Origin: an uncultured Pseudomonadota bacterium
Lineage (GTDB): Bacteria; Pseudomonadota; Gammaproteobacteria; Methylococcales; Methylomonadaceae
Length of the DNA stretch: 38,105 bases
Direction of reading: 5' to 3'
NCBI GenBank assembly: GCA_903904275.1
Contig: CAIVBX010000147.1
Span: forward strand, 1 to 38,105
Shown: in pieces, positions 6,289 to 16,913 of the stretch
Layout of the letters: every line of letters begins with the position of its first letter
Position numbering within the stretch: position 1 is the first letter of the stretch
Translations under genes and position numbers: made by a program
Notes under the pieces: model-generated
Database searches by the model: none
Told to the model about the DNA's origin: nothing
The model's input: the letters and a program-made list of their open reading frames with translations, nothing else

Positions 6289-7863
6289 TCAAATTTTGTT
6301 TGTCAAATACAATTCAATATCTTCTTTAGAAAATCCTATCTTCTTTGCAACGCGTTCAGCATGGCTAACTCGTGAAATACCATCGATAATTTTATGAGTA
6401 GGTTTATCAGCCAAAAATTCTACTTGCTTGGGAATTCCAAGCTGTTTTTTGACTAATTCATCAACTAATTGATGATTATGCGTAATTAAAATAGTGCTAT
6501 TTCCCTTTCGATAAAATCCATGCAACGTATTAAATGAAGATTCCATTTTTTCTTCAAATGTAGTGCCTTCAGATAATTCATCCAAAATCACCAAACTTCG
6601 CGCACTGCTAGCTAGAAAAATGTCTTTGGTGCGTTTTAATTCAGCTCCAAAACGTCCTTCACCATCATTTAATCGACCAATTTCAGATGCTTGGTAAAAA
6701 ATTCTATCTGCTACGCTCATGGTGGCAGACCGCGCGGGAACAAAACAGCCTATTTGTGCGAGTAATTGCAATTGAGAAATTGTTTTACAAAAAGCCGTTT
6801 TTCCACCACTGTTTGGTCCAGTAATCAATAAAACTTTTTCATGATCCAATGCCAAATCATTACCCACATAATCAGGATTATTTTTTCCCAAAATGGGATT
6901 TCTTGCGTCATGTAACACAATTCGATGATATTCACTGTCAATCAACGATGGCATGACAGTGTCATTAGGGAAATTTTCTGCAAATTTTAAAAATGATAAT
7001 AATTCATCTAACTGTCCTAGCGCATCTAAAGTAGCAGCCAATTCATCAGAATCTTTAAACATTTCACGCAAAGGAATGATGAAATTGTCTCTATCAAAAC
7101 CACCAACAATCGGAAAATAAATCAGTAATAATGGAAATGCTAAGATGACTTCCATCAAAATGGACGGTAAGAACAAAAGAATTGCTACACCAATCGCAAA
7201 TAGAAAAAAGAATAACAAAGGCTTGAAAACACGGGGTTGAAAAACGATAGCAGGCAACCACCACGTTTTACGATGTTCTTGTTTAGTTTGTAAAGTTGTT
7301 TCTGTTAAGTACACCGCATTGGTCATCAAATCATAAATTCGACTACCTGAAAATGCTTTGATACGACCAAACAATTCCTGTAAATACTCACTTTCTGGTT
7401 GAGGACTGTTTTGAATTTGAGCAACTAAATTTGTTACAAAATGAACGCCACGTCTGTATTGTAAATAGCCGTAACCTTCAATTTCTCTATTACTTTTGGC
7501 CGTACCAAACATTGGTAAAAACTCGCCAAATAATAAACAATATAAATTATTTTCATGGTTTGCTGCTGTGGCAACTACATTTTGAATTGCATTTTTCAAT
7601 TCTAAATTATTGCGTAATTCTTCAACCGCATATTGCTTACTTTCTATTTCATGTCGTTTATTTAGTGGTTGTACAAGTGATCGAAACAATACACTTTGTC
7701 CAATTACAGTCTCAGCATGATTAACTACCGTGAATAAATTATCAATTTCTAGTGCCAAAAATCCATTTTGGTCTAAAACCCCCTCGCTAATTGGCAATGG
7801 CAGGGCGCTTTTAGTTTCAATCCAAGCCAGTTTTTTCCATATACTGAGTAAATATGCTTTCAT
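6289..7863 (-). CDS. Membrane-anchored MutS-family paralog (core plus ATPase domain V only; no mismatch-binding domain)
   Basis: 524 aa. MutS core-like 'TVIGQSVLFRSLVQPLNKRHEIESKQYAVEEL', two adjacent hydrophobic helices at about aa 213-255 ('PLLFFFLFAIGVAILLFLPSILMEVILAFPLLLIYFPIVGG'), Walker A 'GPNSGGKT', Walker B 'LVILDELSEGT' and 'ITHNH'. There is no N-terminal MutS domain I and no Smr domain. A hand count of a 60-nt sample (7081-7140) gives 19 G+C, against 27 of 60 in rbgA (5521-5580). Confidence 0.7.
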   Translation of the reverse strand: MKAYLLSIWKKLAWIETKSALPLPISEGVLDQNGFLALEIDNLFTVVNHAETVIGQSVLFRSLVQPLNKRHEIESKQYAVEELRNNLELKNAIQNVVATAANHENNLYCLLFGEFLPMFGTAKSNREIEGYGYLQYRRGVHFVTNLVAQIQNSPQPESEYLQELFGRIKAFSGSRIYDLMTNAVYLTETTLQTKQEHRKTWWLPAIVFQPRVFKPLLFFFLFAIGVAILLFLPSILMEVILAFPLLLIYFPIVGGFDRDNFIIPLREMFKDSDELAATLDALGQLDELLSFLKFAENFPNDTVMPSLIDSEYHRIVLHDARNPILGKNNPDYVGNDLALDHEKVLLITGPNSGGKTAFCKTISQLQLLAQIGCFVPARSATMSVADRIFYQASEIGRLNDGEGRFGAELKRTKDIFLASSARSLVILDELSEGTTFEEKMESSFNTLHGFYRKGNSTILITHNHQLVDELVKKQLGIPKQVEFLADKPTHKIIDGISRVSHAERVAKKIGFSKEDIELYLTNKI

Positions 7864-8197
7864 TCATGACCTTTTAAAATAGTATTTAAATGTTGCAGTT
7901 AAGCGTATTGAAATTTGTCACTTTTAGGATACCCGTTGCTAAATGCCTAAATTTACTCGTCACACAGATGCTAAAAAAAGTCTTACTCTGCTTTGTGTAT
8001 GTTTAAAGTTATAACATGTTCGACTGTTTTTAACAGTTACAAAATGTAACTGGATTTTTTAACGTGAAATGTGGTTTTCGCTCTACGAAAAGCATTATAT
8101 GAACAATAACTTGTGATAAAATAACAAATCATATCTGGTTTTAATTGATTCTATATGCACTTTCAGAGTTTTTTGGATGAGACTGTGTTGAAAATTT

Positions 8198-8274
8198 TGG
8201 GGTGAACGATGGGGCTCGAACCCACGACAACCGGAATCACAATCCGGGACTCTACCAACTGAGCTACGCTCACC
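8198..8274 (-). tRNA. tRNA-His (anticodon GTG)
   Basis: The reverse complement folds as a cloverleaf: GGTGAGCGTAGCTCAGTTGGTAGAGTCCCGGATTGTGATTCCGGTTGTCGTGGGTTCGAGCCCCATCGTTCACCCCA. It has the extra G-1 typical of tRNA-His, anticodon loop TTGTGAT, a TTCGAGC T-loop and an encoded CCA. Confidence 0.9.
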
Positions 8275-8311
8275 ATAGCGTATGTGTAACTTTGTAAAAC
8301 GAGGTAATTAT

Positions 8312-8388
8312 TGGTACGCTTGGCAGGACTCGAACCTGCGACCCCCAGCTTAGAAGGCTGGTGCTCTATCCAGTTGAGCTACAAGCGC
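8312..8388 (-). tRNA. tRNA-Arg (anticodon TCT)
   Basis: Reverse complement: GCGCTTGTAGCTCAACTGGATAGAGCACCAGCCTTCTAAGCTGGGGGTCGCAGGTTCGAGTCCTGCCAAGCGTACCA. The anticodon stem is CCAGC/GCTGG with loop CTTCTAA, and CCA is encoded. Confidence 0.9.
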
Positions 8389-8393
8389 AAAGT

Positions 8394-8470
8394 TGGTCGG
8401 GGTAGAGAGATTCGAACTCCCGACATCCTGCTCCCAAAGCAGGCGCGCTACCAGACTGCGCTATACCCCG
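8394..8470 (-). tRNA. tRNA-Pro (anticodon TGG)
   Basis: Reverse complement: CGGGGTATAGCGCAGTCTGGTAGCGCGCCTGCTTTGGGAGCAGGATGTCGGGAGTTCGAATCTCTCTACCCCGACCA. The anticodon stem is CCTGC/GCAGG with loop TTTGGGA, and CCA is encoded. Confidence 0.9.
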
Positions 8471-11913: not shown

Positions 11914-12963
11914 ATGACACAACAATTGGTTAATAAAATCAAAACATGGGGAATCGAATTAGGTTTTCAACAAGTCGGTATTACTGACACCAATTTAACG
12001 CAAGCCGAAGAGCGTTTAGCAAAATGGTTAGCAAACGGTTTTCATGGCGAATTGGACTACATGGCACGACATGGTTTGAAACGCAGTCGCCCTGCCCTAC
12101 TTCATGAAAATACAAAAAGTATTATTTCCGTCAGAATGGATTATTTGCCTGAAAATGCGGTTGAAATGAAGCAGGTTTTAACGTCACCGACAGCCGCGTA
12201 TATTTCACGTTACGCGCTGGGGCGTGATTATCACAAATTGATGCGTCAACGTTTGCAAAAATTAGCCGACAAAATTCAAGCTGAAATTGGCGAATTTGGT
12301 TATCGTACATTTGTTGATAGTGCGCCTGTTTTAGAAAAAGCGATTGCTGAAAAAGCAGGTTTAGGTTGGATTGGCAAACATTCCAACTTAATCAATCGTA
12401 AAGCGGGGTCATGGTTTTTTTTAGGTGAAATTTACACCGATTTAAATTTACAAATTGATGCGCCAACGACTTCGCATTGTGGCGCGTGTGAAGCATGTTT
12501 AACAGTTTGTCCAACACAAGCGATTGTTGCGCCTTATCAAGTTGATGCGCGGCGTTGTATTTCGTATTTGACGATTGAATTGCATGGCGCGATTCCCGAA
12601 AAATTCCGTTCACTAATTGGAAATCGAATTTATGGTTGTGATGATTGCCAATTGGTTTGCCCGTGGAATAGATTTGCAAATTTAACAAAAGAGCCTGATT
12701 TTCACCCGCGCAAATGTTTGAATACGCAGCAACTTTTAGAGGTTTTCGCGTGGACAGAAACGGAATTTTTGAGAAACACGGAAGGCTCGGCAATTCGACG
12801 AATTGGTTATGAACGTTGGCTGCGAAATATCGCAATCGCGTTGGGAAATTCGCCTGTAAATGATGAAATTTTGAATGCACTAAACGCGCGATTACATACA
12901 GTTTCAGACTTAGTGAAAGAACATATTTTTTGGGCAATTCAACAACAAACACGTTCCAAATAA
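11914..12963 (+). CDS. queG: Epoxyqueuosine reductase
   Basis: 349 aa. 4Fe-4S motifs 'CGACEACLTVCPTQAI' and 'CDDCQLVCPWN', plus 'RRCISYLTIE'. Confidence 0.9.
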   Translation: MTQQLVNKIKTWGIELGFQQVGITDTNLTQAEERLAKWLANGFHGELDYMARHGLKRSRPALLHENTKSIISVRMDYLPENAVEMKQVLTSPTAAYISRYALGRDYHKLMRQRLQKLADKIQAEIGEFGYRTFVDSAPVLEKAIAEKAGLGWIGKHSNLINRKAGSWFFLGEIYTDLNLQIDAPTTSHCGACEACLTVCPTQAIVAPYQVDARRCISYLTIELHGAIPEKFRSLIGNRIYGCDDCQLVCPWNRFANLTKEPDFHPRKCLNTQQLLEVFAWTETEFLRNTEGSAIRRIGYERWLRNIAIALGNSPVNDEILNALNARLHTVSDLVKEHIFWAIQQQTRSK

Positions 12964-13060
12964 TTTACTTTTCAATCAACAATCTCCTTCATTAAATCGG
13001 ATTGGTGGGACATTTGTGTTCTCTAAAATAACTTAAATCGGAATAAGGTACGGACACGAA

Positions 13061-13522
13061 CTAATAATCAGGGGTTTCATTTTCATTTGAAGATAGCCAT
13101 TTTTGATAATCTTGATAAAGATTTTCTAATTTACCCAAATCACCATCATTTGAGCATAATTCAAGCTCATTACATTTAGCAGTTGCAAGATGAAAGACAT
13201 CAAAACTTCGTTTATCAACAATAGAGTTTTTTCCCTCTTCTTTTTTTGAACGAGCAAAACGAAACAAATCGGCAGATAACATTGCAATCTTATTGTTAAT
13301 CTCAAACTCTTGATAATCATTGAGAAGATTGTTTAGTCTTTCATATTTTTCATTATCGGAAAAATCTACACCTCTCAACACCTCATAACGAATTAACGAA
13401 CTAATTGCTAAAGCAACATCATCATCATTTAGTAATGCGTCTAACTGAATCATGGCTTCTAAATTTCGCGTATCTAATGCTGCAATAAGTAAATTGGCAT
13501 CTAATAATATTATCTTGTCCAT
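13061..13522 (-). CDS. PIN-domain (VapC-like) ribonuclease
   Basis: 153 aa. The four conserved acidic PIN positions are present: D8 ('IILLDANLLI'), E47 ('RYEVLRG'), D108 ('RSFDVFHLATA') and D126/D128 ('SNDGDL'). Its ATG immediately follows the stop of the upstream ATPase (TAAATG). A hand count of 13081-13180 gives 28 G+C per 100 nt. Confidence 0.75.
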   Translation of the reverse strand: MDKIILLDANLLIAALDTRNLEAMIQLDALLNDDDVALAISSLIRYEVLRGVDFSDNEKYERLNNLLNDYQEFEINNKIAMLSADLFRFARSKKEEGKNSIVDKRSFDVFHLATAKCNELELCSNDGDLGKLENLYQDYQKWLSSNENETPDY

Positions 13523-14635
13523 TTACTGCGACCTTTCTTCTTTTAAAAATTCAAGAAGTTTCTTTTTGGCATTTTTCTGCTGTTCAGCTGACATGCTTTC
13601 ACGTTTCATTTTATTCAAATCAACATCAAAAGCATCGTTAAGAACGTCTATTAACGCTATTTTATTTGGTGCAGTAATCTTTTTTGAACTCACAATCCCA
13701 TTATCACCACGCTCCAATCTATACGCTTCACCTTCTTCGAGCTGAGTCAAAACAATAGATGAATGTGTCGTAATGTAAAATGTAGTGTTTGGAAATAGTT
13801 GTTTCAACAAAGGAATAATTTTAGCCTGCCAAGAAAGGTGCAAATGACTTTCTATTTCATCAATTAAAACAATTCCTTTCACCTTTTGTAAGTTTTGCTC
13901 ATTGGTGAAATTTCCATAACCCGAAATGATGGATTGTATGATTTTCAAGATGGATGCAAAACCTGTACTTAATTGAGATAACTGTCTTTTCTCATCATTT
14001 ATTTTGATTGAAACTCGATTATCACCACTAATTTCCAGAAATTCAGTATCAATTCGTTCGTCAAGTTCATGTAAAAGCATAAGAACTGTTTTCAATTCTA
14101 CAACACGATTATCTTCTTGTTTTTGGTAAGAATTTGAAGATTGAGCGCGACTAATAAACCATTGTTCAATATCATTCTCCATATTCAAATTAGAGAAATT
14201 ATTCTCCATTCCTTGAAATAAGGAGCGAATATAATTACTTTTCCTTTCTGAAAAAATACCGATTGGTTTAACATCCTGTTGTTGATGTTTTATAAATCCT
14301 CTGTTTTGTGATGCCATATAAACAACAGGTAAGCTGTGACTAGAAACTCCTTTAAAAACGTGACGAACCAAAAAATCGAGGTTAGAGGGGGTGTATTCCA
14401 CACCGTCTATATTCGCTGAATTAAAAACGAATAAGCTAGAGTTGTATTCATTTTGTATTACTTCACGAAATGCTTCATGTGAACCTAAAAAAATTTGAAA
14501 TAGCGATTCCAAAAGTTTAGTTTTTCCAAGACCATTTTCGGCAATGAAGGTGTGAACTTTTTTTTCAGGCGAAAGATTCAACTCTATCGTACCGACACCT
14601 TTTACACCTTCTAGTTTAATTTTAGAAAATACCAT
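13523..14635 (-). CDS. ABC/SMC-type ATPase (AAA_15/AAA_21-like), with no fused nuclease domain
   Basis: 370 aa. Walker A 'AENGLGKT' (aa 32-39, nt 14519-14542), ABC-signature-like 'LSTGF' (aa 222-226), Walker B 'IVLIDEIESHLH' (from aa 255, nt 13856-13873 for IVLIDE) and H-loop 'ITTHS' (aa 288-292). The C-terminal tail is charged. A hand count of 14041-14100 gives 18 G+C per 60 nt. Confidence 0.8.
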   Translation of the reverse strand: MVFSKIKLEGVKGVGTIELNLSPEKKVHTFIAENGLGKTKLLESLFQIFLGSHEAFREVIQNEYNSSLFVFNSANIDGVEYTPSNLDFLVRHVFKGVSSHSLPVVYMASQNRGFIKHQQQDVKPIGIFSERKSNYIRSLFQGMENNFSNLNMENDIEQWFISRAQSSNSYQKQEDNRVVELKTVLMLLHELDERIDTEFLEISGDNRVSIKINDEKRQLSQLSTGFASILKIIQSIISGYGNFTNEQNLQKVKGIVLIDEIESHLHLSWQAKIIPLLKQLFPNTTFYITTHSSIVLTQLEEGEAYRLERGDNGIVSSKKITAPNKIALIDVLNDAFDVDLNKMKRESMSAEQQKNAKKKLLEFLKEERSQ

Positions 14636-14650
14636 GATTATTCCAAGAAA

Positions 14651-15559
14651 TTAAAAATACCCTTCACGTTTTTTCTGTTCCATCGAACCTGCTTGGTCAT
14701 GGTCGATTAAACGTCCTTGCCGTTCAGATGTGGTAGTCAAAAGCATTTCTTGAATAATCTCTGGCAAGGTCGTGGCTTCGGATTCGACAGCCCCTGTCAA
14801 TGGATAACAACCTAACGTACGGAAACGCACTTTTTTCATTTCGACTTTTTCATGTTCACCAATTGGCATACGGTCATCATCCACCATAATCAACATGCCA
14901 TCACGTTCCACAACAGGACGTTCTTTTGCAAAATACAACGGTACAATCGGGATATTTTCCAAATGAATGTATTGCCAAATATCCAACTCCGTCCAATTCG
15001 ACAACGGGAAAACACGGATACTTTCGCCTTTATCGATTTTGCCGTTATAGATATTCCATAATTCAGGACGTTGATTTTTGGGATCCCAACGGTGATTTTT
15101 GTCACGGAATGAATAAACACGTTCTTTTGCGCGAGATTTTTCTTCATCACGACGTGCGCCACCGAATGCTGCATCAAATTGATATTTGTTTAACGCTTGT
15201 TTCAAACCGTCGGTTTTCATGACATCGGTGTGTTTTTTACTGCCATGCACAAACGGACTAATGTCCATATCCACGCCATCTTGATTGACGTGAACAATTA
15301 AATCTAACCCCAGCTCTTTGACCATTTTGTCGCGAAATTCAATCATTTCTTTGAATTTCCACGTCGTATCAACGTGCATCATCGGAAACGGTGGACGCGC
15401 TGGATAAAACGCTTTCATGGTCAAATGCAGCATCACCGCTGAATCTTTCCCAATCGAATACAGCATCACAGGGCGTTCAAATTCTGCCGCCACTTCACGA
15501 ATAATATGGATACTTTCCGCTTCGAGTTGTTTTAAATGGGTTAATTTATAGTCTGTCAT
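14651..15559 (-). CDS. cysD: Sulfate adenylyltransferase subunit 2
   Basis: 302 aa and nearly collinear with E. coli CysD as I recall it. Motifs '[21 protein letters not shown]', PP-loop '[15 protein letters not shown]', '[21 protein letters not shown]' and C-terminal '[12 protein letters not shown]'. Confidence 0.95.
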
Positions 15560-15740
15560 TAAAAAGTCCGTGGAATTTAAAGGCTTGAATGATGGCTATT
15601 CTAATTTGAACCGTGATTTATTACCAATGTTGGATTTCGATTTAGCATCTATTTGAAGAATTTTTTAATTCTGTACCAGCTTGCTTGCAAACTAATAGAA
15701 ACCTATAATCCGCCCTTTTTTTGTTGTCAGGCAAAAACTT

Positions 15741-16913
15741 ATGACCAGTCACATTATGCCCACTTATGCACGACTTGCCGTTACCTTTGAAAAAGGCGAA
15801 GGCGCATGGCTTTGGGATGATAAAAATCAACGTTATTTAGATGCACTTTCAGGAATTGCAGTGTGTAATTTAGGACACGCCCACCCCGCCGTTCACACAG
15901 CGATTTGTGAGCAAAGTGCAAAATTACTGCACACGTCAAATCTTTACCAAATAAAATCACAAGAAAAACTTGCCGATAAGCTCATTGAAATGAGCGGTAT
16001 GACAAACGTTTTTTTCAGTAATTCAGGTGCAGAAGCGAATGAAGTGGCGATTAAATTAGCGCGTAAATTTGGACATTCAAAAGGTATCGAAAAACCCGCT
16101 ATTATCGTGATGGACAAAAGTTTTCACGGTCGCACGCTGGCGACATTAAGCGCAACAGGTAATGCGAAAATTCAACACGGTTTTGAACCGCTCGTTGAAG
16201 GCTTTGTGCGCGTGCCTTATAACGATATTTCGGCAATTAAAACGGTGCTTTCAGAAAATAAATCGATTACTGCGATTTTGGTTGAACCCGTGCAAGGTGA
16301 AGGCGGTGTGAACATTCCCGCGTCAGATTATTTAAATCAAATCCGCACGCTTTGCGATGAATACGATATTTTGATGATGCTTGATGAAATTCAAACAGGC
16401 ATCGGACGCACAGGAAAATTTTTAGCATTCCAACATAACAACATTTTGCCTGACGTTTGCACACTCGCAAAAGCATTAGGAAACGGCGTGCCGATTGGCG
16501 CGTGTTTGGCAAGTGGAAAAGCGGCAGACATTTTCACCGCAGGAAATCACGGTTCAACCTTTGGCGGAAATCCGCTTGCGTGTAGCGCAGGATTAGCGGT
16601 TTTAAACACATTAAGCGAAAGTGATTTAATTACTCAAGCTGCTGAAAAAGGCGACGTAATTTGCGCGGCATTCAAAGAAAAATTACAAACCAATTCACAC
16701 GTTTTAAACATTCGCCATTTAGGCTTAATGATTGGCATCGAATTAGACATAACTTGCACTGAACTTGTTGGTAAAGCATTAAATACTGGTTTGTTAATTA
16801 ACATCACGCAAGACAAAGTGATTCGATTATTGCCACCGCTCGTTATTGATAACGACCAAATAACCCAACTCGTTGATACGCTATCAACGTTAATTCAAGA
16901 GTACACCCAATGA
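15741..16913 (+). CDS. argD: Acetylornithine aminotransferase
   Basis: 390 aa. Motifs '[21 protein letters not shown]', '[11 protein letters not shown]' and '[12 protein letters not shown]', with the PLP-lysine region '[12 protein letters not shown]'. The gene lies directly upstream of argF. Confidence 0.85.

Follow-up and report, generated by a model that had tools for sequence, protein, structure and literature searches.

A PtuA-family ATPase strictly linked to a VapC-like PIN protein: a candidate chromosomal conflict module of Gamma- and Betaproteobacteria

We analysed a 38,105-nt stretch of DNA (hereafter the window; contig CAIVBX010000147.1 of assembly GCA_903904275.1) from an uncultured member of the Methylomonadaceae, in which the gene for an ATP-binding cassette (ABC) ATPase of 370 amino acids (aa) is followed directly by the gene for a PIN-domain protein of 153 aa. 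By sequence and predicted fold the ATPase belongs to the PtuA family, known from Septu and retron I-A systems, and the PIN protein resembles VapC toxins. The two genes occur together at every informative locus encoding a relative of the ATPase that we retrieved. The reading that we favour, and hold to be reasonably probable, is that they form a conflict module of two genes, embedded in the chromosome and belonging to the Septu or ABC-ATPase–nuclease class, with a VapC-type PIN replacing the HNH nuclease PtuB. Several signs lead us to regard the pair as a conserved accessory module of conflict type: its genes are strictly linked and patchily distributed, one insert is hypervariable, alleles have been exchanged by segments, HEC-02 or a Doc module occupies the same insertion slot in relatives, and some copies are embedded in type I restriction-modification (R-M) operons.

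A first-pass annotation of this DNA, made from the sequence alone, had proposed a defence-like module of ATPase plus PIN and could not assign the combination to any named system. The latter was overstated, as HEC-03 of Pseudomonas cichorii (Payne et al. 2024) is a named and validated system of an ABC ATPase (DUF3696) and a PIN (bioRxiv 10.1101/2024.01.29.577857), though not homologous to the pair described here. The architecture, and the pairing of such ATPases with varied nucleases, are already known, hence the pair is conceptually expected. By its sequence it is a previously uncharacterised PtuA-PIN family; our literature search was incomplete, so a recent paper may already name the exact family. 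All coordinates refer to the window unless preceded by an L-number (e.g. L001), which denotes a locus fetched for comparison.

Family and predicted fold of the two proteins

The ATPase matches the Pfam families AAA_21 (E = 2.5e-10) and AAA_15 (5.9e-9), the layout recognised in the first-pass annotation, and has no nuclease domain. Its best PADLOC matches are PtuA models (up to 6e-36, spanning residues 1–322), and of the best 25 matches listed, 24 are to PtuA models, the remaining one being to a retron I-A ATPase model. A search of the PDB with a profile of 20 homologues returned only PtuA chains, belonging to Septu (8ee4) or to the retrons Ec78 and Ec83 (~1e-17), and the top 50 Foldseek matches of an AlphaFold2 (AF2) model (pLDDT 77, pTM 0.79) were all PtuA (E ~3e-15, TMq ~0.6). 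By sequence and predicted fold alike, the protein is a member of the PtuA (Septu/retron I-A) family, which bears out the analogy with Septu drawn earlier. It scores 95 bits with the NCBIfam model of retron PtuA against a cut-off of 500, and so is not an equivalog of that protein.

The Walker A, signature-like, Walker B and H-loop motifs that had been noticed by eye are all present in the translation (Table 1). Their key residues are invariant in the 20 homologues, as is Q110 of the Q-loop, hence both ATP binding and ATP hydrolysis are predicted to be intact. Beyond the region matched by the PtuA models, the AF2 model predicts a helical C-terminal extension with helices at residues 323–336, 340–345 and 350–369 (low confidence), in which D330, F336, D339, N341, K344, Q353, K357 and L360 are conserved among the 20 homologues. 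The extension may bind the PIN protein. The earlier suggestion that a C-terminal tail holds the effector fits, by analogy, the binding of PtuB by PtuA's C-terminal extension (PMC12819146).

The PIN protein matches PF01850 (7.9e-9), and its acidic residues D8, E47, D108, D126 and D128, the set listed in the first-pass annotation, are invariant in 29 homologues. A RYEVLRG motif, K104, R105, H111 and S124 are likewise invariant in these. The top Foldseek matches of its AF2 model (pLDDT 87.5) are VapC toxins (3zvk, 4chg and 6a7v, TM ~0.6–0.7), thus the protein is predicted to have the VapC fold and to be catalytically intact. It scores 36 bits against a cut-off of 80 with the NCBIfam VapC model, and some annotation sources label it as a VapC family toxin; no PADLOC model gave a match of any kind. 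The subfamily is small and discrete, with 201 matches at E ≤ 1e-3 in a profile search of 1.84 billion representatives. Fusions of ATPase and PIN, which would provide Rosetta-stone support, were absent from the 120 ATPase, 119 PIN and 150 representative matches listed, among which the longest PIN match was 201 aa.

Strict pairing and patchy distribution

ATPase relatives were scanned in a collection of 185,579 species, each represented by one genome, which yielded 275 loci encoding a relative, and 80 of these loci were fetched. For 77 of them the next gene downstream, in the same orientation, encodes a PIN homologue, and the other three end at a contig edge, hence the linkage is obligate in all 77 informative loci. 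This is the outcome of a co-occurrence survey that had been proposed when the pair was first noticed, and such pairing is far beyond chance. The 77 linked loci span ~30 genera of Gamma- and Betaproteobacteria, with hosts in the Methylococcales, Thiothrix, Leucothrix, Enterobacterales, Pasteurellaceae, Neisseria, Psychrobacter, Moraxella, Comamonadaceae and Lysobacter.

Clustering of neighbouring open reading frames (ORFs) across the 80 loci revealed no third gene conserved across genera. A VapB-like ORF is absent from the ORF list of the window and none is conserved across the same loci, in keeping with the earlier remark that none lies next to the PIN gene. A hidden antitoxin or RNA partner was also looked for and not found: no third gene is conserved, positions 12700–15900 gave no Rfam match at E ≤ 1, and the entire 38-kb window has only four tRNAs.

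Searches of mobile-element collections returned little. The single plasmid match (PLSDB) is evidently a 2.17-Mb Neisseria gonorrhoeae chromosome labelled as a plasmid, phage GenBank records held only a distant ATPase, and IMG/VR contigs likewise held one distant ATPase only. There was no DNA match to the pair in 5,426 complete Escherichia coli genomes.

Degraded copies were also seen. The pair in the nuoL/nuoM gap of N. gonorrhoeae (L173; NZ_CP119142.1, 1705418–1716350) is pseudogenised: the ATPase is left as fragments of 332 + 103 aa, and the PIN as fragments of 74 + 77 aa. In Halomonas and Pseudescherichia loci only C-terminal fragments of the PIN were found, and matches in Granulosicoccaceae and Comamonadaceae loci are truncated; these partial PINs (L019, L026, L049 and L077) suggest decay of the effector while the ATPase remains intact. 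Since the pair is broken in N. gonorrhoeae and survives with PIN remnants in Halomonas and Pseudescherichia, it is dispensable. Two contigs of metagenome-assembled genomes labelled Borreliella garinii and Francisella tularensis (L004 and L032) carry close homologues of Thiothrix- and Thiomicrospira-type pairs, and their species labels look like binning or taxonomy errors.

An accessory cargo of the cysD–cysN slot

The pair follows cysD in three Methylococcales lineages, and is itself followed by queG in the window, rdgC in L001 and cysN in L091, a metagenome-assembled genome. In L091 the entire insert lies between cysD and cysN, and includes, between cysD and the pair, a 204-aa PD-(D/E)xK gene (L091:9384–9998; PADLOC PD_DExK 7e-42, no Pfam match). 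No cysN is present anywhere in the 38-kb window, hence cysD has been parted from cysN in this lineage.

We compared 80 metagenomic loci (L092–L171) whose CysD is 77–94% identical to that of the window. The ATPase–PIN pair occurs in none of the 80, and in most of them cysN begins ~50 nt after cysD. Some relatives carry other cargo in the gap, including HEC-02 (ATPase + NERD; L102:5930–7491 and L105:5930–7554; PADLOC 5e-160 and 3e-52), a validated defence system in which both genes are needed (bioRxiv 10.1101/2024.01.29.577857). The gap of L107 (5922–6977) holds a DUF2281/Doc(Fic) pair. Further cargo (e.g. L095:5957–6298) comprises 113-aa four-helix proteins of the 23S-rRNA-IVP type, secreted Excalibur/DUF4124 proteins, a DHH-family protein, and two putative cysC- and cysQ-like ORFs (197 and 262 aa). 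The slot is thus a small cargo hot spot. The pair, missing from all 80 loci of CysD relatives, is therefore accessory cargo in a hot spot that has also taken up a validated defence system and a toxin-antitoxin (TA) module.

Allele exchange in the ATPase and the PIN

The window has a close relative in L001, with which homology is confined to the cysD–ATPase–PIN block (15610–13034) while both flanks differ. Identity falls from 98.7% in CysD to 86% in the ATPase and 68% in the PIN, and is distributed very unevenly along the latter two (Table 2). Synonymous divergence (dS) in the ATPase core is not above that of cysD, hence the pair was already beside cysD in the common ancestor of the two lineages and is no recent arrival; linkage to cysD is also retained in the more distant Methylococcales genome L091. 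The pair had initially been described as horizontally acquired, and this holds in so far as it is accessory; its arrival at this position predates the window/L001 ancestor.

Table 2. Divergence between the window and L001 by segment, as amino acid identity and synonymous (dS) and nonsynonymous (dN) divergence.
Segment	Amino acid identity	dS	dN
cysD	99%	0.43	0.01
ATPase 1–50	96%	0.13	0.017
ATPase 51–100	61%	0.79	0.325
ATPase 101–295	94%	0.19	0.026
ATPase 296–370	77%	0.62	0.125
PIN 1–104	60%	1.2	0.277
PIN 105–153	91%	0.26	0.037

Judged from these values, divergent alleles have replaced two segments, namely the ATPase insert at residues 51–100 and a contiguous tract in which the ATPase tail is joined to the PIN's N-terminal two-thirds. 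Such a tract would be expected if the tail and the PIN formed a co-adapted interface. In 120 homologues the insert stands out from an otherwise highly conserved ATPase, with a column entropy of 3.0–3.5 bits against 0.25–2.3 elsewhere, and is a candidate trigger-recognition surface.

Other operons that carry the pair

Elsewhere the pair occupies a small number of recurrent positions. It lies in the carA/carB gap in Betaproteobacteria, Xanthomonadales and Kushneria (L040, L041, L056, L070, L074, L075, L077, L079 and L080), in the nuoL/nuoM gap in Neisseria, and downstream of ibpAB-like genes in Enterobacterales; in Hafnia alvei only housekeeping genes surround it. A neighbour-joining tree of the ATPases groups them by insertion context, and some groups cut across taxonomy. 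Indeed, ATPases located in carA/carB form one clade across classes, a pattern that suggests transfer with, or through, the conserved flanking genes. The Pfam families most often seen in genes immediately beside the pair include no integrase or transposase.

In Thiothrix (L009 and L172) and Glaesserella (L036), type I R-M operons hold the pair in the hsdS/hsdR gap, where start and stop codons abut. This position matches the “guilt-by-embedding” signature by which the HEC systems were discovered (bioRxiv 10.1101/2024.01.29.577857). These operons (L009:5229–15577; L172:6544–16404; L036:44–8740) also embed a YhcG/DUF1016 PDDEXK nuclease, Fic, DUF6933 and a DpnII/MboI-like restriction endonuclease, as well as a YgjP-like metallopeptidase behind hsdR.

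Layout and composition of the window locus

Features of the locus are listed in Table 1. Both reading frames and the junction between them are as originally described, and the abutting stop and start codons suggest translational coupling of the PIN to the ATPase. The ATPase starts 15 nt beyond the TAA stop of the co-oriented cysD, and a scan for promoters and terminators between cysD, the ATPase and the PIN gave none that was convincing or above shuffled expectation; the two genes are probably co-transcribed with cysD. Both flanking genes are housekeeping genes, as had been stated: Pfam identifies cysD (PAPS_reduct) on one side and queG (QueG_DUF1730 + Fer4) on the other. No flanking direct or inverted repeats of note were found around the pair.

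Table 1. Features of the ATPase–PIN locus in the window.
Feature	Position	Strand	Evidence and remarks
PtuA-family ABC ATPase gene	13523..14635	(-)	370 aa; ORF, Pfam, PADLOC, PDB search, AF2/Foldseek; proposed sensor/regulator subunit
VapC-like PIN-domain nuclease gene	13061..13522	(-)	153 aa; ORF, Pfam, fold, invariant residues; proposed effector
TAAATG junction, ATPase stop abutting PIN start	13520..13525	(-)	sequence
cysD (upstream, co-oriented)	14651..15559	(-)	PAPS_reduct
Walker A AENGLGKT (K38)	14519..14542	(-)	translation; G35, G37, K38, T39 invariant in 20 homologues
Hypervariable insert, ATPase residues 51–100	14336..14485	(-)	column entropy, 120 homologues; window/L001 comparison
ABC signature-like LSTGF	13958..13972	(-)	translation; S223, G225 invariant in 20 homologues
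Walker B IVLIDEIE (D259, catalytic E260)	13850..13873	(-)	translation; D259, E260 invariant in 20 homologues
H-loop TTHS (H291)	13760..13771	(-)	translation; T290, H291, S292 invariant in 20 homologues
Helical C-terminal extension, ATPase residues 323–370	13526..13669	(-)	AF2 model; proposed PIN-binding tail

The GC content of the PIN (0.31) and ATPase (0.33) genes is the lowest of any in the window (mean 0.395), and other window genes, several of them housekeeping, go down to 0.34–0.36; the deviation of the pair is therefore moderate. Hand counts of G+C given in the first-pass annotation proved exact (28 per 100 nt at 13081–13180, 18 per 60 at 14041–14100, 48 per 100 at 14701–14800 and 40 per 100 at 12801–12900).

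Elsewhere in the window, a cluster of tRNA-His, tRNA-Arg and tRNA-Pro (8198–8470) adjoins a low-GC gene (0.347) for a 524-aa protein with only MutS_III and MutS_V domains (6289–8470 together). A further contig from this population has an SLT-domain gene in place of the MutS-like one (L085:6884–7900), which marks a strain-variable spot. PADLOC gave no match for the window's low-GC MutS-like or VWA/TPR genes.

A proposed mechanism and its alternatives

In the conflict module that we favour, the ATPase and the PIN would be made together from one transcript read through from cysD. A dimer or oligomer of the PtuA-like ATPase would bind the PIN via the helical C-terminal extension and hold it inactive, by analogy with PtuA and PtuB, and the insert at residues 51–100 would recognise a phage-derived trigger. 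The conformational state of the ATPase, dependent on ATP binding or hydrolysis, may then free or activate the PIN, which would cleave cellular RNA, most likely a tRNA or an rRNA loop, thereby stopping translation and aborting the infection.

Several points weigh against this proposal. Binding of the PIN, its toxicity, cleavage of RNA and defence against phage are predictions from sequence and from analogy with related systems, and the sequence would fit an inhibitory ATPase and a required activator alike. No PADLOC model recognises the PIN, and HEC-03 is homologous to neither protein. Housekeeping genes, and not defence islands, surround most of the homologous loci, and the location is stable throughout whole genera (including 13 Psychrobacter loci, 7 Neisseria species and ~9 Enterobacterales loci), whereas defence genes usually turn over faster than such genus-wide stability implies. 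The family is, furthermore, essentially absent from phages, IMG/VR contigs and plasmids.

Some of these features would suit a pure addiction-type TA module, in which a VapC-like PIN toxin and an ATPase antitoxin persist selfishly and stabilise the surrounding DNA with no role in phage defence. The pair sits inside essential operons (carAB, nuo and cysDN) and is stably kept in several genera, its pseudogene decay in N. gonorrhoeae resembles that of many TA loci, and a PIN with the VapC fold and intact catalytic residues is encoded behind, and translationally coupled to, an ATPase in the upstream “antitoxin” position. AAA ATPases have also been validated as antitoxins of nuclease toxins in NetFlax (PMC10440598). 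We nevertheless consider this reading fairly unlikely: at 370 aa, with its catalytic motifs invariant and a single hypervariable insert, the ATPase resembles a sensor and not a simple neutraliser, and both the embedding in type I R-M operons and the slot shared with HEC-02 point to defence, as do HEC-03 and the ATPase–nuclease pairs PARIS, AbiL and Septu, given as architectural relatives in the NetFlax paper (PMC10440598), all of which act against phages. TA and abortive-infection roles are, in any case, not mutually exclusive.

The opposite logic would have the PIN inert on its own and the ATPase acting as an obligatory activator or substrate loader, in an ATP-driven complex on target DNA or RNA. 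We judge this unlikely. VapC-type PINs are autonomous RNase toxins, and the Foldseek matches of the PIN are all TA toxins. HEC-03 is toxic on induction, yet its defence, like that of HEC-02, needs both genes (bioRxiv 10.1101/2024.01.29.577857). In vitro DNA nicking by PtuAB of retron Ec78 requires the PtuA ATPase active site, whereas in models proposed for Septu, for retron Ec78 and for PARIS the ATPase releases its effector (PMC12819146), and the AAA ATPases assayed in NetFlax neutralise the toxins with which they are paired (PMC10440598). The invariant Walker B glutamate and H-loop of the ATPase described here do suggest that hydrolysis matters.

A housekeeping pair for RNA processing or quality control, tied to its host operon and without any conflict role, would explain the co-oriented, tight packing with core genes (cysD here; carA/carB, nuoL/nuoM and ibpAB elsewhere), the lack of mobile-element genes and flanking repeats and the absence from phages and plasmids, but fits the data poorly and is very improbable, given host operons that are functionally unrelated to each other, only 275 confirmed loci among one genome each of 185,579 species, absence from the 80 CysD-relative loci, low GC, the hypervariable insert, mosaic allele exchange, pseudogenisation in N. 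gonorrhoeae and residence inside R-M operons in some lineages.

Returning to the conflict module of Septu class, a more ambitious version can be stated, which we put forward as one joint claim and regard as doubtful. The pair would found a “PtuA-PIN” defence family with a core-operon niche and a two-cassette mode of diversification. Inserted without a promoter of its own between cysD and cysN, carA and carB, nuoL and nuoM or hsdS and hsdR, it could spread between taxa by recombination via the highly conserved flanks, and its expression would be tied to host transcription, such that a shut-off of the host by phage, or a phage protein sensed by the insert, would unleash a PIN that cleaves tRNA or rRNA. 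The cassettes swapped would be the sensor insert on the one hand, and the ATPase tail with its PIN interface on the other.

If the conflict-module reading is correct, a branch with a PIN effector would be added to the Septu/PtuA family, and the pair would join HEC-03 as a second and independent example of a PIN nuclease under the control of an ABC ATPase. This would strengthen the view that such ATPases are interchangeable sensor modules wired to different nucleases. Recurrent insertion inside core operons is an unusual niche for a defence-like module. PADLOC-DB v2 would report the pair as no more than an orphan PtuA-like ATPase, so censuses of defence systems probably miss some of these loci. 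The system is compact (370 + 153 aa), and its delimited insert and naturally swapped tail/PIN cassettes make both specificity and the interface testable.

Comparison with known systems

Septu is one of the nearest known relatives. The pair shares with it a PtuA-family ATPase, the order of ATPase then nuclease in a two-gene unit, and a helical C-terminal extension, predicted here at low confidence, of the kind by which PtuA holds PtuB. Membership of Septu was ruled out, as the downstream protein is a PIN by Pfam and fold and no HNH PtuB is present; the ATPase is also ~100–180 aa shorter (370 aa against ~460–550 aa). Retron I-A systems (Ec78/Eco7 and Ec83) combine PtuAB with a retron partner, which is lacking here. 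A common target is conceivable: tRNA is a target class typical of VapC PINs. Septu and retron Eco7 are described as acting through tRNA-Tyr damage (PMC12819146).

With the toxins of VapBC systems the PIN shares its fold and the complete set of acidic catalytic residues, but its partner is a 370-aa ATPase in place of VapB. VapBC membership was ruled out, since the window holds no small upstream VapB and only the ATPase and the PIN are conserved in the 80 loci. PARIS (AriAB) was also rejected, as there is no TOPRIM domain and no AriA model is among the best 25 PADLOC matches listed for the ATPase.

PrrC and RloC are ABC-ATPase-regulated anticodon nucleases of type I R-M loci that combine the ATPase and a non-PIN nuclease in one polypeptide, and prrC sits between hsdS and hsdR in the prr locus. 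The parallel with our pair lies in the union of an ABC ATPase with a (predicted) RNase and in the hsdS/hsdR position of the three homologous pairs in Thiothrix and Glaesserella. Unlike in PrrC and RloC, the two domains are encoded here by separate genes, and the window copy follows cysD and does not lie in an R-M locus.

In NetFlax, AAA ATPases act as antitoxins that neutralise nuclease toxins (PMC10440598), hence the role suggested for the ATPase in the first-pass annotation had already been described for AAA/ABC ATPases. The NetFlax hub D29 (e.g. AarT:AAA and the AbiL-like TOPRIM_OLD:AAA) is linked by its authors to PARIS, Septu and Gabija (PMC10440598). As in the window, hub D29 places an AAA_21-type ATPase beside a nuclease or RNase-like toxin, which it neutralises there. 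The likeness is one of description; no PIN partners are reported for that hub, and PIN is linked instead to ImmA-type antitoxins (PMC10440598).

HEC-03 has the same architecture, being likewise a two-gene unit of an ABC ATPase and a VapC-like PIN without VapB, with the same presumed logic. It defends against phage, requires both genes and is toxic on induction (bioRxiv 10.1101/2024.01.29.577857). Its ATPase lies near AriA/NsnB, whereas the ATPase described here is PtuA-like. Orthology was rejected at the level of both proteins (BLASTP E = 20 between the two PINs and 4.7 between the two ATPases; hhalign probability 0.4%). The HEC-03 PADLOC models do not match the window PIN and are not among the best 25 matches listed for the ATPase; as a positive control, the HEC-03 proteins match their own models at 9e-86 and 5e-231. 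On sequence comparison, HEC-03 and the ATPase–PIN pair look like independent assemblies of the same pair of domains.

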